Below are positions 1-54,315 of a stretch of 59,442 bases of DNA, piece by piece. Within the stretch, counting starts at the first letter, position 1. The number at the start of each line of letters is the position of its first letter. The DNA lies in contig JAIYDG010000144.1 of assembly GCA_027487625.1 (NCBI GenBank), positions 1 through 59,442 of the forward strand. The letters are read 5' to 3'. The translations under genes and the position numbers were made by a program. Origin of the DNA: Bacteroidota bacterium. GTDB taxonomy: Bacteria > Bacteroidota > Bacteroidia > UKL13-3. The notes beneath the pieces were generated by a model. It was not told the DNA's origin. It did no database searches and worked only from the letters and a program-made list of their open reading frames with translations.

Positions 1-396
1 GCAAAACGCACAAGACTAGGCTTAGTAAATGAAGGTGCAGCCAAAATGATATACAGTGCATCACTAACTAATTTTGGCATGTATAATTGTGACCGTTTTA
101 GCACTACTCCGCCAGCCATGATGGTTTACATTGAAATTCCATTTAATGAAGAAGCACAAATTTATTTCCAGATTAAAGGAGAAAAAAGTTTGGTTTTTGC
201 TTATAGAGATGCTAAAGGATATAATATAAGGTTGCCAAAAAACAAGGAAGTTAACGTAATCATGATGAGTTTCGATAAAAATTTAGGACCATTATTTTTA
301 AAGGAAACAAAGAAATTTAGCTCAAACGAAAAACTAGAATTAAAGCCCGAACCATTCAATTTGAAGGAAATTAAAACGGCATTGGCTGCATTGTAG
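1..396 (+). CDS. 3' end of an unidentified protein (partial, open from base 1)
   Basis: The frame of ORF 46..396 stays open back to base 1. The stop is at 394-396 and a hairpin terminator follows. No family recognised. Confidence 0.4.
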   Translation, partial: AKRTRLGLVNEGAAKMIYSASLTNFGMYNCDRFSTTPPAMMVYIEIPFNEEAQIYFQIKGEKSLVFAYRDAKGYNIRLPKNKEVNVIMMSFDKNLGPLFLKETKKFSSNEKLELKPEPFNLKEIKTALAAL

Positions 397-490
397 ATGA
401 ATAGAGTTTATATAAAAAACCAAATTGAATAATTAGACAAATAAACTTAAAGCAAATAAATACATTTCAAGAGCAGCTTTAAGTAGAAAA

Positions 491-528
491 AAGAGGCTGT
501 TTCAAATGATGAAACAGCCTCTTTTTTA
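491..528 (+). terminator. Rho-independent terminator hairpin
   Basis: AAGAGGCTGTTTC / GAAACAGCCTCTT 13-bp stem with a 7-nt loop, followed by a T-run. An A-run lies upstream, so it could act in both directions. Confidence 0.6.
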
Positions 529-785
529 TTTGGACAGGTATATGAAGAAAATTCTTTTATTCGATTCTAACGCCCTTCATTTTGACTTTTGATACAGCCT
601 CATTTTTAAAGATTGTAAAGATGAAAGCTAACTGGAAGAATAAAAGTTTGTAAATAGTGATGGAATTTGGCGAAAAAGCGGATTTAAAGTAGTAAACTAA
701 TCAGCCAGAACTGAACCTTGCAAGATGATTAAAACTTCATCTTAAAACAGAAGCCACCTTTTGCCAAACATATATTCAAGCTAAT

Positions 786-1607
786 TTATTTCTCTGCTCT
801 TAATCTTTCAATTTGTTCGATAGTTAATTCCGTAAAATCGGATATTTGTTCGTTTGTATGATTAGCTTTAATTAGTTTTCTAGCAATGTCTTCAGCTTTT
901 TTTCTAATTGCAAATTTTAATCTACCTCTATCGTCTTGCTCTCTTATTAAAACGTAATCATAAGCTTCTAATTCTGCTTTTGTCCAATTATGTTTGTCTG
1001 CACTTTCATAAGCAGATTTTAACCCTTCGTCTTTTAAGTTCTCTGGAATTACATCAAGATTTTCTACGTTTTTAATAAAGTAAACCCATTGGTCAATTAT
1101 ACTTTCGAGCTCATTTTCTTTCTTGTTGAATTTTGGAAGTTCTATAAAGTTAAATTCAATATCCTTTAAATAATTTTCATTCGTTTCGGTATCAACAATT
1201 TTATGTCTATTTATGTAACTAGGATTTTTTGTTACTTCAAAATCTAAAATTCCAATAAAGTAAGTTGGATTCAGATTTTCGTACTGGTCACCTCTTTCTA
1301 TTTGTGCCGAATAACTTTTAGATGCATAATATAAAACACGTTTATCAAAACCGTCTACTTCTGCGACTTGCATTTCCACAATATAAGTTTTATCGTTTTG
1401 GTCTTTCGCTTTTACATCAACAATTGTTACTTTCCCTCCCTTCAAATCGGGTAGCTGATAGGGTGTTAAAATATCTACATTTACGATTTTATGATTTTCT
1501 TGAAGCAATAAAACTGCGTTTAGGAAAGAAATTAATACTTCCTTCCTGTTCTCATTTCCAAATATTTTCCGAAATGCAACATCATTTTTTATGTCTACAA
1601 ATTTCAT
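786..1607 (-). CDS. Rpn-family recombination-promoting nuclease / PD-(D/E)XK putative transposase
   Basis: 273-aa ORF. The N-terminus MKFVDIKNDVAFRKIFGNE..., the D..V...E.Q nuclease core (IVDVKAKD...YIVEMQV) and the ~270-aa length are typical of this family. Confidence 0.8.
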   Translation of the reverse strand: MKFVDIKNDVAFRKIFGNENRKEVLISFLNAVLLLQENHKIVNVDILTPYQLPDLKGGKVTIVDVKAKDQNDKTYIVEMQVAEVDGFDKRVLYYASKSYSAQIERGDQYENLNPTYFIGILDFEVTKNPSYINRHKIVDTETNENYLKDIEFNFIELPKFNKKENELESIIDQWVYFIKNVENLDVIPENLKDEGLKSAYESADKHNWTKAELEAYDYVLIREQDDRGRLKFAIRKKAEDIARKLIKANHTNEQISDFTELTIEQIERLRAEK

Positions 1608-6443: not shown

Positions 6444-7754
6444 GTGGGAAATATTGTTGCTATAGTTGGAAGACCAAACGTGGGTAAGTCTACCCTTTTT
6501 AATCGTATTATGGGTGACCGTAAAGCCATCGTTGATGACTTTAGCGGCGTTACCAGAGATCGTCATTACGGCAAAGCTGAATGGCAAACAAGGGAATTTG
6601 TTTTAATTGATACCGGAGGTTATGTGCCAAGCAGCGCAGATATTTTTGAAGCTGCTATTCGTGAACAAGTAAAAATCGCCATAGAAGAAGCAGATGTACT
6701 TTGCTTTATGGTGGATGTACAAACCGGAATTACTGATTTAGATTTGTCGTTTGCTGATTTATTGAGAAGAAGCAAAAAGCCTGTAATTCTTGTTACAAAC
6801 AAGGTTGACAGTTTCGAAAAGCAATATGAAGCGGCCGAATTTTACAGCTTAGGTTTTAAAGAAATGCATTTAATTTCATCAACAAGCGGAAGTGGAACCG
6901 GTGATTTATTGGATGCTATCATAAATCTGATACCTGCTGAAGATTTGGTGGAAACTGAAGAAGTAATTCTGCCCAAAATTGCTGTTGTTGGTAGACCCAA
7001 TGTTGGAAAATCATCTTTGGTTAACGCCTTATTAGGTGAAGACAGAAATATTGTAACAGAAATTGCTGGTACAACTAGAGATGCAATTCATTCTCATTAC
7101 AAATTGTATGGAAAAGAGTTAATTCTGGTTGATACTGCAGGTATTAGAAGAAAAAAGAAAGTAGAAGAAGATATTGAGTTCTACTCAGTAATGAGATCTC
7201 TTAGAGCCTTAGAAGATTGTGATGTTGCTATTTTAGTTATTGATGCTACTGTTGGTTTAGATCAACAGGATTTAAACCTAGTTAATCTTGCTGTTAAAAA
7301 CAGTAAAGGATTATTGGTTTTGGTAAATAAATGGGATTTAATTGATAAAGACACAAAAACTGCAAGAACATTTGAATTGGCAATTAAAGAAAGATTGAGA
7401 CCATTCGATGATGTGCCCGTTTTATTTATCTCTGCTATCGAAAAACAAAGAATATTCAAAGTAATTGAAGAAGCTCTTCATGTTTATGAAAATAGAACCA
7501 GAAGAATTTCAACCTCAGAATTGAATGAATTTTTTGGTGAAGTGATTGCAGCAAACCAACCTCCTTCTGTTAAAGGAAAGTTTGTTAAAATTAAATATGT
7601 CACCCAATTACCTGGTAGAAATCCAAAATTTGTAATGTTTTGTAATTTACCACAATACATAAATGAGAGCTACAAACGCTATCTAGAAAACAAATTAAGG
7701 GATGCTTATGATTTCAAAGGATGCCCAATTACAATTTATTTTAGAAAAAAATAG
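6444..7754 (+). CDS. der: Ribosome-biogenesis GTPase Der (EngA)
   Basis: 436 aa with two tandem GTPase domains (GRPNVGKS twice; DTGG and DTAG; NKVD and NKWD) and a C-terminal KH-like domain. GTG start, with a TAGCTTTG -7-like box ~20 nt upstream. Confidence 0.95.
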   Translation: MGNIVAIVGRPNVGKSTLFNRIMGDRKAIVDDFSGVTRDRHYGKAEWQTREFVLIDTGGYVPSSADIFEAAIREQVKIAIEEADVLCFMVDVQTGITDLDLSFADLLRRSKKPVILVTNKVDSFEKQYEAAEFYSLGFKEMHLISSTSGSGTGDLLDAIINLIPAEDLVETEEVILPKIAVVGRPNVGKSSLVNALLGEDRNIVTEIAGTTRDAIHSHYKLYGKELILVDTAGIRRKKKVEEDIEFYSVMRSLRALEDCDVAILVIDATVGLDQQDLNLVNLAVKNSKGLLVLVNKWDLIDKDTKTARTFELAIKERLRPFDDVPVLFISAIEKQRIFKVIEEALHVYENRTRRISTSELNEFFGEVIAANQPPSVKGKFVKIKYVTQLPGRNPKFVMFCNLPQYINESYKRYLENKLRDAYDFKGCPITIYFRKK

Positions 7755-7828
7755 ATAAGTATTTGGTAATTTGAAACTAACCGATATATTTGCACCGAAT
7801 TTTAGAAACAAATTAATTTAAAAGCAAA

Positions 7829-9940: not shown

Positions 9941-10007
9941 GTTTTACCCTTTGTAGACAAACTCTCTTGAAATAACAATGTTTTACATGGATACCAATAA
10001 CTATACC

Positions 10008-10430
10008 ATGTCACAAAAAATCAGTATTCCAATTTTATTCATTCTAGCATTATTTACTTTCCAATCTTCTAAAGCTCAAAACAGAACAGATTCTCTGCAA
10101 GCAGTGAATTTTTTTGGAACTATTTATGCTGTTAAAAGTAGCACCGCCCTTCAACTTAGTGAATTAAAACCTTTAGTAAAAAACAATCAAAATGCTTTTA
10201 AATCATTCAAAAAAGCAAGAAGAATTAAAGCATTCAGCATCGGTTTAGAAATTATTTCAATAATACCTGCTGCATTTGCAATTGCTACAGAAAATGAAAC
10301 AGAATTTTGGATAGGAATCGGAGTATCAGGAATTCTTAATGGAGTTGGTACCTATTTAATGTTAGATCCCTACAATAAACACATCACCAATTGCATCAAA
10401 GAATACAATAAGGGAAATAGTTATAGATAG
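10008..10430 (+). CDS. Hypothetical exported/membrane protein
   Basis: The ATG at 10008 gives a signal peptide (MSQKISIPILFILALFTFQSSKAQ), and two C-terminal hydrophobic helices follow. Its TAG stop is formed by the first bases of repeat copy A. Confidence 0.5.
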   Translation: MSQKISIPILFILALFTFQSSKAQNRTDSLQAVNFFGTIYAVKSSTALQLSELKPLVKNNQNAFKSFKKARRIKAFSIGLEIISIIPAAFAIATENETEFWIGIGVSGILNGVGTYLMLDPYNKHITNCIKEYNKGNSYR

Positions 10431-10764
10431 GGCCTGCTGAAAATTCATAATAGTACTTATTATCAACCAATTAGACTGTTTTTTTAATGATTTAAATTCA
10501 AGGTTTTAAGAGCAATTGTTAAAAAATCCTTGCATCAAGTACAATTAGTTTTCAATTAACTTAAAGACAGAAACAAGGCCATCTTTGTCGTTGCTGCCAA
10601 ATTGAAGTATCATACATACATCTTAAACACAAAATGGAAATCAAACAGTTTAATACAGAGGCAATTTTGTTTAGGCCAATTTGTTGGACTTTAACAAAAT
10701 GCATTCGGTATAATTTGGCAGCGTCTAAAATCTGACCTGTTTCTGTCTTTTTCAGCGGGCCCTA
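10428..10764 (+). repeat. Copy A of a TIR-bounded structured element (MITE or ncRNA), 337 nt
   Basis: Starts TAGGGCCTGCTGAAAA and ends TTTTCAGCGGGCCCTA. Colinear with 38981-39227, with a 63-nt identical core at 10548-10610, nested long-range stems, and a 90-nt insertion (10624-10713) in the apical loop relative to copy B. Confidence 0.85.
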
Positions 10765-10770
10765 GATAAC

Positions 10771-10804
10771 AAAAAAGCCATTCGCAAAACGAATGGCTTT
10801 TTTG
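10771..10804. terminator. Bidirectional terminator between convergent genes
   Basis: AAGCCATTCG-CAAAA-CGAATGGCTT hairpin flanked by an A-run and a T-run. Confidence 0.7.
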
Positions 10805-18636: not shown

Positions 18637-21600
18637 TTAATTAATTACTACCAGTTTCTGGAACTGTTCAATTGGCTTTTGGCCCGAAACCCTGAATTTA
18701 ACTTTGTAAATATAAACTCCATTGGCCAACTTATCTCCATATTCGTCATTTCCATTCCAACTCAATTCAGAAAAGTGATTTCCTTCTGCATATCCATCGT
18801 AATCAAGTGTTTTGATTAATTGTCCGTTTACTGTAAAAATTTGAATGCTAACCGAGATGTCTTGTCCGGCCTGATTGTGGTCGAAATGAAAAACAGTGCT
18901 TCTGGTAAATGGATTTGGATAGTTTAAGACATGTTGAATTGATGGCTTTCCAGCAGGTTTTATTTCAAAATCAAGACTCGATTCTGCAGGATTATTATAA
19001 GCATCATATGAACGGAAACGAAGCGTATGTTTTCCAATTGGTAGATTTTTGAATTTATACCTTACTTCTCCACTTTGATAAGAATTAATGGTAGCTTGGT
19101 AATAATCATTAACAACAATTGCTTTGCTATTTTCATTGTTTAAAACCAATGTTAAATCTCTACCAATTCCTCTTCCGGTAGTATTGATTCCATTTTCATC
19201 AAATAATTTGGCAATAAAAGTTGGATTCTCATCTGTTAACCCTCCATTTACAAACTTCTCATCATTCATAAATAATTTCAATTCCGGACCTGTTTTGTCT
19301 GAACCAATTGAATCTGAAGTACCTCCAATAATTAATGAATTTGAATAACCTGATGCATCTGAAACTCCATTGCTTGCATATGCAGAAAATTTGCCATAAC
19401 CAAATTGATAGGAAATATCTTTAGGCACAATAAAAGTGAAGCTAAATAATCCATCATTTACAGAAGCTTTACCTCTATATAAAACATTATTTTGCATCCT
19501 AAATTCCATAGGATTACTTTGTTCTGGATTGTTTACCAAAGTTTTGTAGTTTTCCGATTTGTCGAATAAGGTTGGGAAAATTTCACCATCAAAATCACTC
19601 ATCAAAACTCCTTTTTTATCAACTAATTTCCCTGAAATAGTAACTTTTTCTAAAGCTTTAATCGTATCATTAAATTGAAGGATTGATACACCATTAATTT
19701 CTGTTGGTATTATTTCATTTTTAGGATACGACATCTTCAAAAATGGATCTCCTAAAAAAGTAAAGTTTCTTGTATTTTTATCTAAATAGGAATTCTTAGT
19801 TTTCATTAAAACATCACCCAATCTTGGTGGATTTAATTGCGAAACAGAATCAAGTCCTACATTGTCAAAAAATCTTGAATTTAGAATTTCATTTTGACCT
19901 GAATAAACTAATCTAACAGTAGTGAATAATCCTATTCCACCGCCATTTGGATTCAATAAAACCATTTCTCCTGCTGAAACTCTTGATGGGTCATCAAACC
20001 TACTAAACTCACAAGTTGCAGTAACAAACAATGGCAGTTTGGTTTTATTCGACCAAGCATTGATATCTTCAACTCCCATTACTCTTTCAGCAGTTAAACC
20101 AACTTCACCACCATGACCAGTATAATTAAAAATAAGGCATCCTTTTTCAATAGCATTATTCATGGCTTTATTTGCGTCTGGATAACGCGCTCCGCCAGCC
20201 GTAATCTCTCTTGGATAAGCATCTAAAAAAATCTTTTGAATATTGTACTCAGGAAAACGATTTCCTACATTATTCGCTAAACTATTCGATTGATTTTGAT
20301 GTGCATTAAAATCTTCATCATCGGCCATAAACACCATTTTGTTTCTCCAATCACCAAATGAAGTTTCTTTGGTATAAGAAATGAATTTATCTACCATTTC
20401 AGCAGCTTCAGAAGCACTTGAAATAGGCAACCTACCTAAGCCAATATCCATTAATTCTCCAGGGTCGCCATCTCTATCCCAATTACCTTCATTTTCATCT
20501 AAAAAGCATATATAATCATCGCTGCAATATGATGTTGTTGGGTCGAACGATTCAAAACTTTGGAATGCAGGAACAAAATTTGAGTTCACTTTGATTCTAT
20601 ATTTATAATCATATGAAGCCCTTCCAAATAACATAACATCAGCTAATTTTATGGAACCTGTTAGTGTTTTTTCATAAAACATTTTTAAAAAATCTCTCAA
20701 TGCAGTTAAGTCTTGTGAACCTGAAGAAAACTCATTATAAATCTGTTGAATATTGATAACATGAATATCTAATCCATCATTTTCTTTATGAAATTTCGCT
20801 AAGCGACTAGCCTCATCAAAAAAATCAGGATGTGTTAAAATTAAGCCATGAGCTGGACTTAAAGCATGTAGATTTTGGTTAAGTATTTTACCAATAATTT
20901 TAGGCTGAAGAAAATTACTTCCATCAATTACTGCGAACTCTCTTAAACTATCGGTGTTACAAGTAAAACTATAATTACTTGCAGCAAAAGATCCTTCTAT
21001 TTCAAAAGGATTTACTGCATTTGTTACATCCCATACATTTAAAGTACGGTTAGTATTGATATTAAACTTGGTTTTAGCAGCACTAGCAATTGATTTTTTA
21101 TCTCTAAATACGAAATTACCACTTGAATTTTTTAGATTTACCCGAGCCACAATTTCGAAAAAATCTAACCAACCAATACTTCCACTGGCTGGTTTATTGT
21201 ATGCATAAGTTACATTTAAAGTTTGGTTTGAAACCGTAAATTCAGCAGCAACATAATTTAATCCAGATGTAAATGGTTTCTCATAACCACCAATAGTAAT
21301 ACCCATATTATGTGATAAAACATTGGAACCATTAATTGTAACTGCAAATGTACTTGGAACAATTGATCTGGAGGTTGCTGAAGACAACATACGCAATGGC
21401 TGAGCAATAATTAAATTTGGAATACTCAAGTTAAAACTTTGTGAGGTAACCCTATCAAATTCTTCTCCTACCCAAACTTTTCCTGATTTGGTTAGATTTG
21501 ATCTCTCGTTTTCATATAAATAAGTATAATCAGCTTCAGAAGATTCTTGAGTGAAAGTGGATTCTGAGTTAATTTTAGAAATTCTCTTTCCATTTTCATT

Positions 21601-22422
21601 AGAAACAGTTAGAAAATAATAAGTGGTATCACTATACAAATTTGATTGGTGACTATAGGTTCCAGATTGTTTGTTAAAAATCCATTGGTCGATTTGAGAT
21701 TCGCCATAAAACAGGATAAAATCATTTGTATTAAATTTACCATCCTCTTCACCCTTTACCTGAATTGAAATTTCATTTAAATCATCATATCTAAAAGCAC
21801 TATTAGGAGTAGGGAGCATTCCAGCACCGTTTCCATAAAATTTAATTTTTCTTGGGTCGATTAAATCTGGATTAATGCCCATTGTTCTTAATCCATTATA
21901 ATCAATTCTATGAATACCGTTTTGGGTTGTTGCGATTTTAAACCAATCACCTGAGGCCAAAACCGAATTTGCAGCAGCTTTTTTTAATGAAACTTTCTTG
22001 ATTGCTGGTTTGGTATTGATTTGAAGTTTGAAACTCTGCAAAATCAGCAAATCATTTGCATTTTGCTTTATAGCATCAATTTGAACAATCAATTTTGATT
22101 TTCCTTTTTCAAAAGCAGGATAAGTTCTTATTGAAAAATTTGAAGGAAAATTCCCCATTGAGGCAATACTTGGAAAATCCAATCGTTTAAAATCTTCAAA
22201 AATTAGTTGAGCTGAAAGAAATTCTTCACCATTTAGGTCTAAAATTTCTGAAAAAACCGGAACTGATTCCTGATTTTTAAGAAAAATTTCACCTTCGAAA
22301 TGAGGTAAATTCTTAAAATTGGAAGAATTTTTCCAATTAATTTTCCTTTCAACTAAAATTTCTTTTGCCTCCAAAAAGTGAGAAAAAAGAAAAAAAAGCG
22401 ACGAAAAAAGAAAAATTTTCAT
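18637..22422 (-). CDS. porU: T9SS C-terminal signal peptidase PorU (C25 gingipain-like)
   Basis: The ATG at 22422 gives signal peptide MKIFLFSSLFFLFSHFLEA. C25-type catalytic His (NYTGHGGE) and Cys (FVTATCEFSRFD) are present, along with a retained C-terminal T9SS-type domain (VLNYPNPF...). The track start at 22524 is a TTG upstream extension. Confidence 0.9.
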   Translation of the reverse strand: MKIFLFSSLFFLFSHFLEAKEILVERKINWKNSSNFKNLPHFEGEIFLKNQESVPVFSEILDLNGEEFLSAQLIFEDFKRLDFPSIASMGNFPSNFSIRTYPAFEKGKSKLIVQIDAIKQNANDLLILQSFKLQINTKPAIKKVSLKKAAANSVLASGDWFKIATTQNGIHRIDYNGLRTMGINPDLIDPRKIKFYGNGAGMLPTPNSAFRYDDLNEISIQVKGEEDGKFNTNDFILFYGESQIDQWIFNKQSGTYSHQSNLYSDTTYYFLTVSNENGKRISKINSESTFTQESSEADYTYLYENERSNLTKSGKVWVGEEFDRVTSQSFNLSIPNLIIAQPLRMLSSATSRSIVPSTFAVTINGSNVLSHNMGITIGGYEKPFTSGLNYVAAEFTVSNQTLNVTYAYNKPASGSIGWLDFFEIVARVNLKNSSGNFVFRDKKSIASAAKTKFNINTNRTLNVWDVTNAVNPFEIEGSFAASNYSFTCNTDSLREFAVIDGSNFLQPKIIGKILNQNLHALSPAHGLILTHPDFFDEASRLAKFHKENDGLDIHVINIQQIYNEFSSGSQDLTALRDFLKMFYEKTLTGSIKLADVMLFGRASYDYKYRIKVNSNFVPAFQSFESFDPTTSYCSDDYICFLDENEGNWDRDGDPGELMDIGLGRLPISSASEAAEMVDKFISYTKETSFGDWRNKMVFMADDEDFNAHQNQSNSLANNVGNRFPEYNIQKIFLDAYPREITAGGARYPDANKAMNNAIEKGCLIFNYTGHGGEVGLTAERVMGVEDINAWSNKTKLPLFVTATCEFSRFDDPSRVSAGEMVLLNPNGGGIGLFTTVRLVYSGQNEILNSRFFDNVGLDSVSQLNPPRLGDVLMKTKNSYLDKNTRNFTFLGDPFLKMSYPKNEIIPTEINGVSILQFNDTIKALEKVTISGKLVDKKGVLMSDFDGEIFPTLFDKSENYKTLVNNPEQSNPMEFRMQNNVLYRGKASVNDGLFSFTFIVPKDISYQFGYGKFSAYASNGVSDASGYSNSLIIGGTSDSIGSDKTGPELKLFMNDEKFVNGGLTDENPTFIAKLFDENGINTTGRGIGRDLTLVLNNENSKAIVVNDYYQATINSYQSGEVRYKFKNLPIGKHTLRFRSYDAYNNPAESSLDFEIKPAGKPSIQHVLNYPNPFTRSTVFHFDHNQAGQDISVSIQIFTVNGQLIKTLDYDGYAEGNHFSELSWNGNDEYGDKLANGVYIYKVKFRVSGQKPIEQFQKLVVIN

Positions 22423-22502
22423 CTTTTTTGGGCTTAAATACTCAAAATATTGCATGTTAGATTTTAAAATACTTATTATTGAAAATTCGTAAACTGGATT
22501 AA

Positions 22503-22539
22503 AAACGATAACAAAGAAAAACAAATTGTGTTATCGTTT
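22503..22539. promoter_or_regulatory. 11-bp perfect inverted repeat in the divergent porU / sprF intergenic region
   Basis: AAACGATAACA-N15-TGTTATCGTTT lies between the porU start (22422) and the PorP/SprF start (22607). Confidence 0.4.
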
Positions 22540-22606
22540 GAAACATTGTTTACAGAAACCCTATAATTGCAAACTTGTTTTTAAACTAGGATCGAAAATT
22601 AATATA

Positions 22607-23635
22607 ATGACCTTTTATCAAAAGTGGCATAAAAAGGCCTACATATTTCTGCTAATTATAATCACCATTTGTGGTGAATATGCCTCTGCGCAGGATCCTC
22701 AGTTTTCTCAGTTCTATGCCAATCCAATTTATACAAACCCAGCCTTCGCCGGAACTCAGACGGTTGGAAGAATTGTAACCAATGTCAGACAACAATGGCC
22801 AGGTATTCCAGGTTCATTCAGAACTGGTACATTTAGTTATGATGAACACTTTGATGCTATTAATGGAGGATTTGGTGTTCAAGCAACATTTGATGAACAA
22901 GGTGTTGGTACACTTAGAACAGTTGGTTTGAATGTAATGTATTCTTATCAAATTCCTGTTACAAGGAAATTTACAATGAGAGCAGCTGTACAAGCCGGAG
23001 TTATTCAAAAATCAGTAGATTTCTCAAAATTAACTTGGTATGATCAAATAGTTTTAGGAAATGGATTTATAAATCCACCAAGTGAATCGGTTTATATGCA
23101 AGGTGGTGATTTAAACCCATCTATATTCATTACTAACTTTGCAGCAGGAATTTCTGGATACTCTAAGAATTTCTATTTTGGTTTAGCCGCACATAATTTA
23201 TTTGAACCAACCCAAGACTTTTTCTCTACTGGAGATGTAGAAAATCCTAATAGAATTCCTAGAAGATTTACTGGAAATATAGGCTTAGTAATTCCTGTTG
23301 TTGAAAGCAGAAATCCCAAATACAGAGCTAATCTTTATCCGAATGTCATTGTAAAATCGCAAAGACAATTTCAGCAATTGAATTTAGGTATGTACGCAAG
23401 TAGAGGCTCATTTTTAGCCGGATTGTACTACAGAGCGAATGCCGTAAATTCAGATGCTTTTATCATACTTTTAGGTATCAGAACTCCAAAAGTAAGAATC
23501 GGATATTCATACGATGCAACTGTTAGTGAAGCCAGACCAGGTGCAGCCAACTCTCACGAAGTTTCATTATCTTTTGAATTACACAAAAGAACACCGAAAA
23601 GAACTGTTAGAGCAATGCGTTGTCCAGAATTTTAA
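22607..23635 (+). CDS. T9SS membrane protein, PorP/SprF family (paralogue 1)
   Basis: The ATG at 22607 gives a signal peptide ending SAQDPQFSQFYANPIYTNPAFAG, the family signature. The rest is a beta-barrel-like pattern. Confidence 0.85.
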   Translation: MTFYQKWHKKAYIFLLIIITICGEYASAQDPQFSQFYANPIYTNPAFAGTQTVGRIVTNVRQQWPGIPGSFRTGTFSYDEHFDAINGGFGVQATFDEQGVGTLRTVGLNVMYSYQIPVTRKFTMRAAVQAGVIQKSVDFSKLTWYDQIVLGNGFINPPSESVYMQGGDLNPSIFITNFAAGISGYSKNFYFGLAAHNLFEPTQDFFSTGDVENPNRIPRRFTGNIGLVIPVVESRNPKYRANLYPNVIVKSQRQFQQLNLGMYASRGSFLAGLYYRANAVNSDAFIILLGIRTPKVRIGYSYDATVSEARPGAANSHEVSLSFELHKRTPKRTVRAMRCPEF

Positions 23636-23773
23636 GAGGAAATTAATTTTCCTTACTTCGATTTTACATAAAAAATAAAAAGATTTTCTAAATTGCAGAT
23701 TCTAAATATTCAATAGAATTTAATTTCTTTAAGAAATAAGAAAAAATAATTCGCGTTGGAATTTATATTTAGC

Positions 23774-24775
23774 ATGAACCAAATGAGAAAAATATTATTT
23801 GTTTGCCTGACTTTAAGCTTGTTGCTTCCAGAATTAAAAGCACAAGATCCACAACTTAGTCAATACTATGCCGCTTCTTTATATACTAACCCAGCAATGG
23901 CTGGAGCGAGTAGAAATCTTCGTTTAGCAATCTCTGGTAGAAGTCAGTACACTGGCTTACAAAATAACTATAAGACTGGTGTAGCTGCATTTGACGCTTA
24001 CATTGGCGGAGTTAATAGTGGAATTGGGTTAATTAGTTCTTATGATGTTTCTGGTGATGGATTTCTAACCACAAGCTCAGCATCTGCCATTTATTCTTAC
24101 AATGCTCAATTAAACAGAGATTGGGGATTTAATGCAGCTCTACAAGGAGGAATCATTCAAAAAACCTTCGATTTTAACAAATTTACCTTTGGTGACATGA
24201 TTGACCCGGTTTTGGGTCCGATTTTAAAAACCCAGGAAACAATTCCAATGGAAACCAGAACCATCCCAAACTTTGGTTTTGGAACATTAATTTTCAGCAA
24301 TAGATTATTTGCTGGTGCTGCCATTCACAATTTACTTGAACCAAACCAATCTTTCTTCTACCAAAATGCAGATTCATCAGCATTAAGATTACCAAGAAGA
24401 TATACTGTTCATGGAGGTTTTAACATTTATTTGAATAAAACTAGGTACGAAGAAGATAGAATTATTTTATCTCCCAACTTGCTTTTCATGCAACAAAGGA
24501 ATTTTTATCAGGTGAATGTAGGATTTTATGTAAAGCAAAAAGCTTTGACACTAGGAACTTGGTTCCGTCAAACTTCCAAAAATGCTGATGCAGCAATTTT
24601 CATGATTGGAATGCGTTTTACTAATTTTAAAATTGGTTACAGTTATGATGCTGTAATTTCTAAGGCATCTACAGCAGCAGTAGGCTCTCACGAAATCTCT
24701 ATGGTATTTGAATTCAAGCCAGATACAGGAGGAAGAAGAAGGAGTAGTAAAGCTTTAAGATGCCCAGATTTATAA
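23774..24775 (+). CDS. T9SS membrane protein, PorP/SprF family (paralogue 2)
   Basis: KAQDPQLSQYYAASLYTNPAMAG signature. The C-terminus ...GSHEISMVFEF...ALRCPDL parallels paralogue 1 (...NSHEVSLSFEL...AMRCPEF). Confidence 0.85.
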   Translation: MNQMRKILFVCLTLSLLLPELKAQDPQLSQYYAASLYTNPAMAGASRNLRLAISGRSQYTGLQNNYKTGVAAFDAYIGGVNSGIGLISSYDVSGDGFLTTSSASAIYSYNAQLNRDWGFNAALQGGIIQKTFDFNKFTFGDMIDPVLGPILKTQETIPMETRTIPNFGFGTLIFSNRLFAGAAIHNLLEPNQSFFYQNADSSALRLPRRYTVHGGFNIYLNKTRYEEDRIILSPNLLFMQQRNFYQVNVGFYVKQKALTLGTWFRQTSKNADAAIFMIGMRFTNFKIGYSYDAVISKASTAAVGSHEISMVFEFKPDTGGRRRSSKALRCPDL

Positions 24776-38707: not shown

Positions 38708-38720
38708 TCAAACCAAAAAA

Positions 38721-38757
38721 AGAAAACCTGCTGCTTAAAAACAGTAGGTTTTCTTTA
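38721..38757 (+). terminator. Terminator after the 1335-aa gene
   Basis: AGAAAACCTGCTG / CAGTAGGTTTTCT stem (one G:U pair) followed by a T-rich tail. Confidence 0.6.
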
Positions 38758-38923: not shown

Positions 38924-38950
38924 AAAAAGCCTCCCTCGGGAGGCTTTTTT
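38924..38950. terminator. Strong bidirectional terminator with no CDS immediately upstream on the + strand
   Basis: AAAAAGCCTCCC-TCG-GGAGGCTTTTTT. On the minus strand it lies downstream of the thiamine pyrophosphokinase gene and repeat copy B. Confidence 0.75.
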
Positions 38951-38980
38951 ATTTAGTACTAGTTAAACTCTCGCTTATTT

Positions 38981-39227
38981 TAGGGCCTGCTGAAAACCTT
39001 TAGTAGAACTTGTTATCAATCAATTAGACTATATTTTAATAATTTAAATGCAAGGTTTTAAGAGTAATTGCTTAAAATCCTTGCATTAAGTACAATTGGT
39101 TTTCAATTAACTTAAAGACAGAAACAAGGCCATCTTTGTCGTTGCTGCCAAATTGAAGTATTATATATACATCTGTTTTGGCAGCGTCTAAAATCTGACC
39201 TGTTTCAGTCTTTTTCAGCGGGCCCTA
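38981..39227 (+). repeat. Copy B of the TIR-bounded structured element, 247 nt
   Basis: Same 16-nt termini as copy A, a 63-nt identical core (39099-39161) and the same orientation. It lacks the 90-nt apical insertion. Confidence 0.85.
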
Positions 39228-39244
39228 TTTAATAATCGAAAATA

Positions 39245-52450: not shown

Positions 52451-52606
52451 ATCGCCATTGATTTTGGTGGCACATTTGTATTATTTTCAACGCATAGACC
52501 AACGCAAAAAAATTCAAAAGTGCCCCCAAGCCAGTGAACAAAGACAGCAGCAAAGAATGGACAACCTAGCAAAGACAGACAAAACGCCAGCCCCTAACAA
52601 CACATC

Positions 52607-52668
52607 TGCAATAGGCGTACATTAAGTCTCCATTTGCAGTGATTTATGGGATTGGTAAATTCGTTTCC
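52607..52668 (+). repeat. 62-nt direct repeat R1 carrying a near-consensus promoter
   Basis: 57/62 identical to 53380-53441. Contains TTTG (52633-52636), a 19-nt spacer and TAAATTCG (52656-52663). Confidence 0.8.
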
Positions 52669-52743
52669 CTAAGCTACATTTGAGTATAAACGCTCGCCCA
52701 TCGCAAATTTACAAAACGTTATAGCCAATTTTAAAAGACAACT

Positions 52744-53352: not shown

Positions 53353-53379
53353 TATAAAAACTGGCTATAACGGCATATT

Positions 53380-53441
53380 TGCAATAGGCTTACAATTAGT
53401 CTCAATTTGCAGTGATTTATGCGATTGGTAAATTCGTTTCC
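53380..53441 (+). repeat. 62-nt direct repeat R2 carrying a near-consensus promoter
   Basis: Second copy of R1. Contains TTTG (53406-53409), a 19-nt spacer and TAAATTCG (53429-53436), ~120 nt upstream of higB. Confidence 0.8.
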
Positions 53442-53557
53442 ACAAATTTCATTAAAATTTAAACTCAAATCCCCAACATGTTATTCTGCAATAAAAAAAA
53501 TCTTCTTGTAGACTTAATTTACTATACTTATCTTTGGCGTTAGTATCGTAAGAAGAG

Positions 53558-54222: not shown

Positions 54223-54315
54223 CGCCGCTCGCGTAAGGGATAGTAGCGGATATCCTTTTTGTGAGGCACGAGCAAAAAGATAGCAGCGGATAGCCCGGCC
54301 CGTAGGGATACGCCC
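54223..54315. other. GC-rich noncoding patch with internal direct repeats and a central hairpin
   Basis: GATAGTAGCGGATATCC (54239-54255) and GATAGCAGCGGATAGCC (54279-54295) are 15/17 identical and 40 nt apart. They flank a CTTTTTG / CAAAAAG hairpin (54255-54279). GTAAGGGATA and GTAGGGATA lie outside them. Confidence 0.5.

Follow-up and report, generated by a model that had tools for sequence, protein, structure and literature searches.

Small dispersed intergenic repeats with inverted ends and hairpins are known from Neisseria (Correia/NEMIS), enterobacteria (ERIC) and the Bacillus cereus group (bcr). They are co-transcribed with their neighbours, compensatory changes or processing by RNase point to effects exerted through RNA, and the RNA hairpin is formed mostly by pairing of the two ends. 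RUP and Nezha are bacterial MITEs of the IS630/Tc1-mariner, "Stowaway-like" type. For the subgroups of the IS5 family, target duplications are usually quoted as 2-4 or 9 bp. MITEs derived from IS5-family elements have been described in Porphyromonas gingivalis as BrickBuilt, MITEPgRS/MITE464, MITE239 and MITE700 (PMC4596501). These are short, intergenic and non-coding, and a genome holds ~10-20 copies; the terminal inverted repeats (TIRs) match those of resident IS5-family insertion sequences (ISs), the interiors bear no relation to the transposase gene, and one end type is common to several unrelated MITE families (PMC4596501). The Neisseria IS5-family element ISNme1 has the end GAGACCTTTGCAAAA, and ISPg1 and ISPg4 of P. 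gingivalis have the related 12-mers GAGACCATTGCA and GAGACTGTTGCA (PMC4596501).

The window analysed here is a 59,442-nt stretch of a Bacteroidota genome (contig JAIYDG010000144.1). We consider it likely, with a probability of about 0.8, that two stretches in it (10428-10764 and 38981-39227) are copies of a MITE that belongs to a group of IS5-family ISs widespread in Bacteroidota and that carries a hairpin selected on the minus strand. The element resembles the P. gingivalis MITEs in being short, intergenic and non-coding, with IS5-type ends, an unrelated interior and an end type common to several families. In our own comparison 9 of 15 positions are alike between the ISNme1 end GAGACCTTTGCAAAA and AGGGCCTGCTGAAAA of the present element. 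It differs from BrickBuilt in terminal sequence and host lineage, in its regular TA-N2-3-TA flank (BrickBuilt duplications are irregular) and in carrying a ~95-nt covarying hairpin across families where BrickBuilt has a 23-nt minisatellite. The autonomous relatives are like the IS5 family (NF033578; DUF772 + DDE_Tnp_1_2) in their short inverted ends, single transposase ORF and short AT-rich duplications, whereas the window copies encode no protein and TA-N2-3-TA, which can be read in more than one way, cannot be assigned to any one of the duplication lengths usual for IS5 subgroups. TA at both junctions and inverted ends are shared with the Stowaway-like MITEs, but here more than TA is duplicated, and the cognate transposase is of IS5 type. 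Unlike in Correia/NEMIS, ERIC and bcr repeats, to which no homology was found, the hairpin is a separate internal domain beside one end with conserved internal loops, and it recurs in many MITE families with a clear single-strand signature.

Two copies of one element in the window

Sequence comparison agrees with the original prediction that 10428-10764 (copy A) and 38981-39227 (copy B) represent one element, both copies being oriented alike. Both start with TAGGGCCTGCTGAAAA and end with TTTTCAGCGGGCCCTA, and four matches to the terminal 14-mer (≤2 mismatches) were found in the window, compared with 0.23 expected by chance. The inverted repeat is 16 nt long when TA is counted; the single T:G position that had been noted in it is present but polymorphic, a perfect T:A being found in about half of 30 related copies. 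More generally, the inverted ends of the element measure 16-21 bp (TAGGGCCTGCTGAAAA[AG.C]), and it lacks an ORF. The hairpin-distal TIRs lie on the plus strand at 10428-10443 (TAGGGCCTGCTGAAAA) and 38981-38996, and the hairpin-proximal TIRs on the minus strand at 10745-10764 and 39208-39227, both reading TAGGGCCCGCTGAAAAAGAC; a 20-mer of the same class as the latter ends autonomous IS5-family elements. Copy A is the long form, a 333-bp element (GGGCC...GGCCC) with TA on each side, to which 10 long-form full copies align over their full length. Copy B is the short form, a 243-bp element with TA on each side, and has 20 short-form full copies in related MAGs at 82-96% identity. Both lengths are below the ~600-bp limit for MITEs, and there is no conserved ORF: the sole ORF of the element, 47 aa in copy A, is absent from copy B.

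The longest run identical between the copies is the predicted 63-nt core, with exact coordinates 10548-10610 and 39099-39161. With the 90-nt block of copy A left out, the copies are 90% identical overall, the first 120 columns being less alike (84%) than the remainder (96%). Nested complementarity was also borne out, with AAAGACAGAAACAAGG at 10563 pairing with CCTGTTTCTGTCTTT at 10736 in copy A. Folding of copy B is much more stable than that of shuffled sequence on either strand (z = -8.3 and -8.2). The 90-nt block itself (10624-10713) was found near the apex of the hairpin in copy A only, copy B having 2 nt at that place. It is not the one-off insertion it seemed to be: it folds as a separate arm and marks a long subfamily, with at least 18 copies or fragments detected by BLAST, all inside this MITE family, and no BLAST match outside the family among the loci examined.

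The long hairpin module occupies, on the minus strand, positions 39113-39227 of copy B together with the terminal repeat (covariance model R1, 104 bits, E = 6e-23; supported by covariation). In copy A its predicted fold spans 10562-10764 on the same strand (70.2 bits, E = 7e-15, with a 103-nt insert at the apex relative to R1), the 90-nt block lying near its apex. A second, leader hairpin (TGCAAGG...CCTTGCA), also found in autonomous IS5-family elements, lies on the minus strand at 39049-39085 in copy B and at 10497-10534 in copy A, where one arm has a G-to-T change.

Copy A is flanked by the target duplication TAGATA on the left (10424-10429) and on the right (10763-10768). The left repeat overlaps the stop codon of ORF 9978-10430, whose TAG is made, as predicted, by the flanking TA and the first G of the element. 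Copy B is flanked by TATTTTA (38976-38982), an imperfect repeat with one T different from the right flank TATTTA (39226-39231). The TA flanks that had been predicted are therefore present on both sides, but they are part of a longer repeat. The terminator-like hairpin AAAAAAGCCATTCG...CGAATGGCTTTTTT (10771-10804) does lie after copy A, outside the element, between it and a convergent epimerase gene; it was missed by a consensus terminator scan. A symmetric host terminator, also outside the element, lies immediately to the left of copy B (38924-38949).

Spread, target sites and autonomous relatives

Copy number and an empty site were the checks proposed for the MITE reading, and both gave positive results. 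A genome scan found copies at at least 25 loci in one related Bacteroidia MAG, JBIMKP01, and further carriers were three other Bacteroidia MAGs and a bin labelled Vulcanococcus. About 45 true loci were recognized among the matches listed, and 30 full copies were aligned. The element is common in freshwater Bacteroidota. All 30 full copies are intergenic and none of the 30 lies within an ORF. Stop codons adjoin either end of the element, often with insertion exactly at the stop codon, and in the window's family there is no preferred orientation relative to neighbouring genes; the proposal that the element serves as the 3' UTR of the adjacent gene is thus not general. Tandem copies occur, and contig ends frequently fall inside the element. 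In other MITE families from metagenomes the far-side gene is directed into the element 18 times out of 20, against 8 of 16, a possible bias that is doubtful without real gene calls. BLAST of the element against phage and plasmid collections gave no match. A first scan of viral contigs gave chance matches only, and a second found one MITE with the same ends and an unrelated interior. Apart from KRAS primers and unrelated papers, nothing was retrieved from the literature for the terminal sequence.

Direct repeats of 6 bp or more flank 18 of 29 independent insertions, whereas re-paired random flanks gave a mean of 1.3 and a maximum of 5. The repeat has the form TA-N2-3-TA (6-7 bp); in the remaining 11 of the 29 the flanks have only TA or less in common. 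Repeats of 6-7 bp were also found for 19 of 33 metagenome elements, and two complete IS copies in assembled genomes carry TAATTA (L207) or TAAGTA (L205) on both sides. One occupied locus (L047) has an unoccupied ortholog (L008), for which length and alignment score favour loss of the element plus one 6-bp repeat over a TA-only model. This empty site is supportive rather than exact because the ortholog is diverged (84% identity on one side), and it is equally compatible with duplications of 2-3, 4-5 and 6-7 bp. The staggered cut can be read in each of these three ways because TA belongs to both the inverted repeat and the target. A search with the neighbouring proteins for exact empty alleles of the two sites in the window recovered occupied contigs only, each ending inside the repeat.

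Autonomous elements of 1.1-1.9 kb whose ends and flank pattern are the same code for DDE transposases of the IS5 family. Such elements occur in metagenomes and other genomes, and seven were collected (L133, L180, L150, L181, L202, L183 and L130). The L133 and L180 transposases score 365 and 421 bits against NF033578 (cutoff 275) and contain Pfam DUF772 and DDE_Tnp_1_2; the other five are tblastn homologs of the L133 protein. The transposases of the end-sharing ISs are long (~510-585 aa), and their homologs number more than 7,900, of the IS5 family wherever named. In these ISs the leader hairpin sits around the transposase start codon or shortly before it, is conserved in sequence without clear covariation, and is preceded by a promoter-like TAnnTTTG box. 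One TIR-bounded element contains an IS110-family gene. A lone TIR-like end at another locus (L064) was rejected as an IS, the neighbouring 241-aa ORF not being transposase-like; by eye from its sequence, we take this ORF to resemble a peptidoglycan glycosyltransferase. As predicted, no transposase gene lies near the two copies: tblastn detected no IS5-family transposase in the window, nor in ~360 kb of loci from MITE-bearing MAGs. For this reason a partner IS in the same genome is an assumption, and the copies in the window could be immobile relics today. In the mechanism we propose, an IS5-family transposase made elsewhere in the genome would bind the ends of the element, whose insertion would take place in AT-rich DNA between genes, with TA-NN(N)-TA as the target. 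Read on the minus strand, the element would have the layout of an IS without its transposase gene: end, long hairpin, leader hairpin, ~60 nt and end.

Two other accounts of the element were weighed against these data. The original prediction had offered, as one of two readings, an IS630/Tc1-mariner-type MITE that duplicates TA alone. TA is indeed found on both sides of nearly every copy and also lengthens the inverted repeat, and the assignment to a MITE stands on copy number, ends, duplication and empty site. The family assignment does not: the 6-7-bp repeats are far in excess of the ~1.3 expected, the unoccupied site fits a longer duplication, and the search for an IS630 transposase with the same TIR found IS5-type enzymes instead in all seven end-sharing autonomous elements. 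We regard duplication of TA alone by an IS630-type enzyme as hardly credible. The other reading, a free-standing, non-mobile structured ncRNA gene present as two paralogs, could account for the very stable folds and for the covariation in the long hairpin described below, and an undescribed RNA would give no Rfam match. It is nevertheless very improbable given the number of loci in a single MAG, the target duplications, the tandem copies, the unoccupied ortholog and the assembly breaks, together with ends common to autonomous ISs and insertion at stop codons in both orientations. Nor is there a consistent promoter or terminator, since the terminator after copy A is a plus-strand one and that after copy B a minus-strand one. 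MITE and structured RNA, which had been posed as alternatives, are both real features of one object, the hairpin being part of the element.

The conserved hairpin and its strand

The hairpin of ~95 nt consists of a 16-bp basal stem, tandem GA/GA, an irregular internal loop and an apical GUAU/AUAC hairpin, and its internal-loop and apical nucleotides are invariant. The covariance model that had been suggested as a check was built (R1), and it detected the module in ~38 of 88 metagenome loci, in many diverged MITE families and always at an element end; none of the autonomous ISs sampled contains it. In the metagenome alignment 96.6% of 672 cells are paired (76.6% when shuffled), although common descent of the sequences means that independent events are fewer than the cell counts suggest. 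The covariation score is 0.618, compared with 0.232 after shuffling (reached in 0 of 500 shuffles) and at most 0.143 when partners were slid, and 17 of 28 pairs show compensatory changes, with both sides altered. The RNAalifold energy is -36.9 kcal/mol on the minus strand and -14.2 kcal/mol on the plus strand. G·U cells outnumber A·C cells by 53 to 3, which indicates that pairing is selected on one strand, the minus strand of the window, and not on the strand that the original prediction had assumed for a structured RNA. The minus strand is also the transposase-sense strand. We concluded that the hairpin is conserved as a base-paired single strand across diverged MITE families. It is retained in families that are otherwise unalignable, on host contigs of 33-47% GC. 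Within the window's own family, variation among subfamilies is 2% in the hairpin and 6-11% in the other half; covariation is uninformative there because the hairpin is almost invariant, and one compensatory change (G-C to A-U) was seen.

At gathering score no Rfam 15 family matched the element. With E relaxed to 10, no hit came near the threshold of its family, and the three that lie wholly within the element scored 13-19 bits against thresholds of 85-119; 12 related loci gave no match. Hairpin-ribozyme loop motifs were considered and dropped, the architecture being different and Rfam giving no match. The IS110 bridge RNA, TnpB/IscB omega RNA and retron ncRNA were likewise dismissed, as no such gene is adjacent, the targets are diverse, and TIRs and a duplication are present. 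Tn3- and Tn7-type ends were ruled out by sequence and duplication length, and a published Cardinium MITE is an unrelated IS982 derivative.

Several functions can be considered for the hairpin. It might be an intrinsic terminator on the plus strand, where the AAAAAG of the inverted repeat provides a U5 run: in every family CTTTTTCAGC stands at the end of the plus-strand hairpin, the stem is perfect on both strands in the window's family, and the far-side gene reads into the element in the 18 of 20 metagenome-family cases mentioned above. Such a terminator, which would halt transcripts exiting the element or read-through from the far-side gene, is unlikely on both counts, as pairing is selected on the opposite strand and the 53 G·U pairs become A·C mismatches on the plus strand, where more than half of the consensus energy is lost. 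In addition, a terminator has no need of invariant internal-loop and apical nucleotides, the hairpin was not called by the consensus terminator scan, and the window's own family has no orientation bias. The hairpin might also lack a function of its own and hitch-hike in a successful MITE lineage, either as a relic of palindromic DNA or as an inverted repeat bound by the transposase. Three direct AGAT(G) motifs within it are candidate protein sites, and the sampled autonomous ISs manage without it. We find this improbable too, in that a protein-binding palindrome should keep its sequence rather than covary, double-stranded or cruciform DNA offers no reason for the 53:3 bias, and the hairpin is kept in families that cannot be aligned elsewhere and in hosts of differing GC content. 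One specific DNA strand, on the other hand, would yield the same G·T bias as RNA.

For the minus-strand hairpin of the IS5-group MITE, the sequence pattern tentatively suggests action at the RNA level, in transcripts running into the element from the hairpin end. Because it lies upstream of the TAnnTTTG box, the hairpin would be transcribed by read-through only. Against this, neither orientation of the copies is preferred with respect to neighbouring genes. The likeliest putative role, held with low confidence, may be that of a cis-acting processing, stability or insulating structure that aids persistence or mobilization of the MITE. A more specific and rather improbable proposal is that the hairpin is a functional RNA needed by the MITE, either binding or regulating the transposase, so as to compete for a cis-acting IS5-family enzyme, or processing itself. 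Room for it is left by the single-strand selection, the invariant loop and apical nucleotides, the occurrence in many MITE families and the absence from the sampled ISs.

Significance of the element and its hairpin

The MITE aspect of the element is ordinary biology. The element explains why assemblies of freshwater Bacteroidia break at these points, and its occupied and empty sites provide a strain-level marker. With it, ends and a TA-N2-3-TA target are now defined for a very large and poorly described IS5 subgroup, that of the more than 7,900 transposase homologs. What is unusual is that a non-coding DNA transposon keeps a ~95-nt structure selected on a single strand across families while the sampled autonomous relatives do without it, and this raises the question of what use an RNA, or one DNA strand, is to a MITE. 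An alignment and a covariance model now exist for this motif, which is absent from Rfam. If the hairpin were an RNA required by the MITE, there would be an RNA-dependent step in the spread of a classical DDE transposon of the "DNA-only" kind.

Two copies and their dispersed family

Copy A (10428-10764, a 333-bp element) and copy B (38981-39227, 243 bp) share the start TAGGGCCTGCTGAAAA and the end TTTTCAGCGGGCCCTA, and the terminal 14-mer has 4 matches in the window against 0.23 expected. Reading and aligning both regions bore out everything that the original prediction had described in the sequence, namely the ends, the 63-nt core that is the longest identical run (10548-10610 = 39099-39161) and the additional 90 nt of copy A (10624-10713). 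With the 90-nt block set aside, identity between the copies is 90% (84% in columns 1-120 and 96% in the remainder), in agreement with a core better conserved than the 5' third. Copy B folds at ∼-84 kcal/mol on either strand (z ∼-8 vs shuffles). The genes around the copies are ordinary chromosomal ones, encoding a Der-like GTPase, RNase P protein, an epimerase, T9SS cargo proteins and thiamin pyrophosphokinase, and searches of phage and plasmid collections with the element found no similar sequence. No Rfam family matched the element at the gathering score; with E-values up to 10 allowed, all matches were far below the family thresholds.

Other features of the window were recorded. GC skew switches from negative to positive at ∼21000-24000, and copies A and B lie on opposite sides of this switch in the same orientation. 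After the gene for a 1335-aa T9SS cargo protein there are two terminator-like hairpins (38720-38757 and the symmetric 38924-38949) ∼170 nt apart with no ORF between them, a stretch that may give a small transcript or be a remnant. A match to the Rfam Flavo-1 RNA at 54226-54304 on the plus strand scores 46.8 bits against a gathering score of 42, consistent with a Flavobacteriia-like host within the Bacteroidota. A 97-nt direct repeat (52595-52691 and 53368-53464; 81% identity, 773 nt apart) is without the MITE ends and could be the shared leader of paralogous genes or a different repeat family.

When a set with one genome per species was scanned, the 18-mer GTCTTTTTCAGCRGGCCC matched at least 109 loci, and about 45 among the matches listed are true copies of the element. 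At least 25 element-bearing loci belong to one MAG, Bacteroidia bacterium CCAP1403_21_bin-002; further ones are in Bacteroidia MAGs from Lake Mendota and Lake Erie, and on contigs of 31-33% GC binned as 'Vulcanococcus'. The latter CALRIT02 contigs (L035, L037 and L110), deposited as the picocyanobacterium Vulcanococcus limneticus, probably represent wrongly binned Bacteroidia DNA. Many contigs terminate within the element, as does every public contig bearing the window's own flanking genes. Multiple copies exist of the short (243-244 bp) as well as of the long form (327-333 bp). At least 18 copies or fragments of this family have the 90-nt block, which was found nowhere else among the loci compared; it is therefore a subfamily marker, and not a private insertion of copy A. 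All 30 full copies are intergenic, with stop codons adjoining either end and no orientation preference. One locus (L071, ∼7726-7771) has a ∼46-nt mini-palindrome consisting solely of two TIR-like arms (GTGCCTGCTGAAAGTC...TTTTTAGCAAGCAC), which may be a minimal derivative.

Target repeats and the cognate transposase

TA is present on both flanks of nearly all copies, and the repeat extends further as TA-NN-TA or TA-NNN-TA. Copy A is flanked by TAGATA on the left and right, and copy B by TATTTTA on one side and TATTTA on the other. A direct repeat of at least 6 bp was found in 18 of 29 independent insertions, compared with a mean of 1.3 (maximum 5) after random re-pairing of left and right flanks. 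Insertions with differing inner flank bases mostly retain the outer TA, and this pattern suggests a TA-N2-3-TA target preference followed by mutation or by exchange among copies. The tandem copies at L077 (5213-5646) and L052 (7306-7705) are arranged head to tail and separated by exactly TA-nn-TA, the target being recreated at both junctions by each insertion. The search for empty sites gave one orthologous pair, occupied L047 and empty L008. Removal of the element and one 6-bp repeat from L047 restores the length and aligns to L008 better than a TA-only model; support from this pair is moderate because the orthologs have diverged. The 6-bp repeats and the empty site speak against the duplication of TA alone that had been proposed. 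Since TA serves both as the outermost inverted-repeat pair and as a piece of the target, staggers of 2-3, 4-5 or 6-7 bp all fit, readings that are inseparable by any sequence comparison.

Ends identical to those of the window family surround unrelated interiors in L046 (a Cyclobacteriaceae MAG) and L116 (a viral-collection contig), which implies a shared transposase. A metagenome scan with the hairpin-proximal end TAGGGCCYGCTGAAAAAGNCB, designed to leave out the window's own family, returned 88 loci. Among these are 28 complete MITEs (217-319 bp, many families) and 7 autonomous elements of 1.1-1.9 kb, each bounded by both ends and encoding a transposase. The L133 and L180 transposases scored 365 and 421 bits against NCBIfam NF033578 ('IS5 family transposase', cutoff 275), and both have the DUF772 and DDE_Tnp_1_2 domains. 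Their homologs number more than 7,900 and, where named, are IS5 family; IS copies in assembled genomes have matching ends and perfect TAATTA or TAAGTA repeats. Because the autonomous elements found with matching ends carry transposases of the IS5 type, the originally proposed IS630-type MITE was rejected, on transposase as well as on TA-only duplication. Neither the window nor ∼360 kb of loci taken from the MITE-bearing MAGs contained an IS5-family transposase of this type.

Two loci may contain nested elements. In L158 a 1508-bp element (30-1537, minus strand) with matching inverted ends and TATTTA repeats encloses an IS110-family (RNA-guided) transposase (NF033542, 221 bits) in place of IS5, and may be an IS110 element nested in a MITE of this class. 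The 314-bp Cyclobacteriaceae MITE of L046 (1968-2285) contains a second, nested 25-bp inverted repeat (CGTCATTCCTGCGTAGGCAGGAATC...) and looks like a MITE inside a MITE.

We concluded that the element is a dispersed, mobile repeat. The MITE reading was correct in kind (dispersed copies, inverted ends, target repeats and one empty orthologous site), and the element has the defining properties of a MITE, with a same-genome partner IS presumed. It forms a new MITE family in a large TIR-defined superfamily. Among described elements, those nearest to it in kind are the MITEs that derive from IS5-family elements in Porphyromonas gingivalis (PMC4596501).

Leader hairpin and layout

Autonomous ISs carry a hairpin TGCA(A/G)GG...AAAACCCTTGCAC 65-70 nt from one end, just past a Bacteroidota-type -7 box TAnnTTTG (read from sequence) and directly before or around the transposase start codon. 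Its asymmetric form is kept in the MITEs (39049-39085 in copy B, 10497-10534 in copy A), so the transposase-sense strand is the window minus strand. On this strand the MITE order is end, long hairpin, variable small hairpin, leader hairpin, ∼60 nt, end. In some autonomous ISs, such as L207 (1487-1530) and L133, the start codon lies within the leader hairpin, whose 3' arm codes for N-terminal K-K-L/H-A, an arrangement that resembles sequestration of the translation start. Between the long and leader hairpins, L118, L122, L144, L182 and similar loci have a small palindrome AAAATAT-N-ATATTTT; it takes in a TAnnTTTG-like box immediately ahead of the leader hairpin in L118/L131/L159-type elements, and only near-matches (TATTTTCA, TATTTTTT) in L122, L144 and L182. 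Some of these MITEs may have kept an outward-reading IS promoter.

Covariation and possible role of the long hairpin

The long hairpin module, together with the terminal repeat beside it, occupies the minus strand at 39113-39227 (copy B) and 10562-10764 (copy A). Subfamily variation within the window family is ∼2% in the hairpin half vs 6-11% in the other half, and private substitutions per 100 cells are 1.0 in the hairpin vs 1.6-2.0; with a near-invariant hairpin half, family-internal covariation is nearly absent. Diverged metagenome families supplied the variation; 24 sequences were aligned with MAFFT, and 28 pairs in three helices were scored. Pairing reached 96.6% vs 76.6% with partners shuffled, 17 of 28 pairs had changed on both sides, and the covariation score was 0.618 vs 0.232 in shuffles (0/500 reached 0.618) and ≤0.143 with partners slid by 1-3 columns. 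Among the conserved unpaired features are a tandem GA/GA step (C-A-G-A-U opposite A-G-A-U-G), a GUAU-loop-AUAC hairpin at the apex and internal-loop strands that contain GGCA. In the window the covariance model R1 of this module found only copies A and B, on the minus strand. Of the 88 metagenome loci about 38 have the module, in each case beginning at an element end; no R1 module was found inside an autonomous IS across these 88 loci. Correia, ERIC and bcr elements are RNA-structured repeats similar in kind, and the conserved hairpin motif is undescribed.

The consensus energy is -36.9 kcal/mol in the minus-strand orientation vs -14.2 in the plus-strand orientation, and G·U cells outnumber A·C cells 53 to 3 (47 to 2 with the window's family left out). 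This bias is unexplained by a double-stranded palindrome or cruciform, and pairing is therefore under selection on a single strand. RNA is the simplest form of that strand; it may instead be a specific DNA strand. The structured RNA of the original prediction therefore survives as a part of the MITE, not as the alternative to it. An intrinsic terminator is conceivable on the plus strand, where the U5 of the terminal repeat comes after the hairpin, but this is the strand without selection on the pairing; on the minus strand the hairpin has no U-run after it and is therefore not an intrinsic terminator.

Lying upstream of the promoter-like box, the long hairpin would be transcribed only through read-through, yet orientation bias relative to neighbouring genes is absent in the window's family and doubtful in other families. 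With low confidence, our best guess is that the hairpin acts in cis as an RNA structure within read-through transcripts that come in at the hairpin-proximal end. Its effect on processing, stability or insulation could in turn bear on MITE persistence or mobilisation, and the data also allow a direct role of the hairpin in mobilisation.
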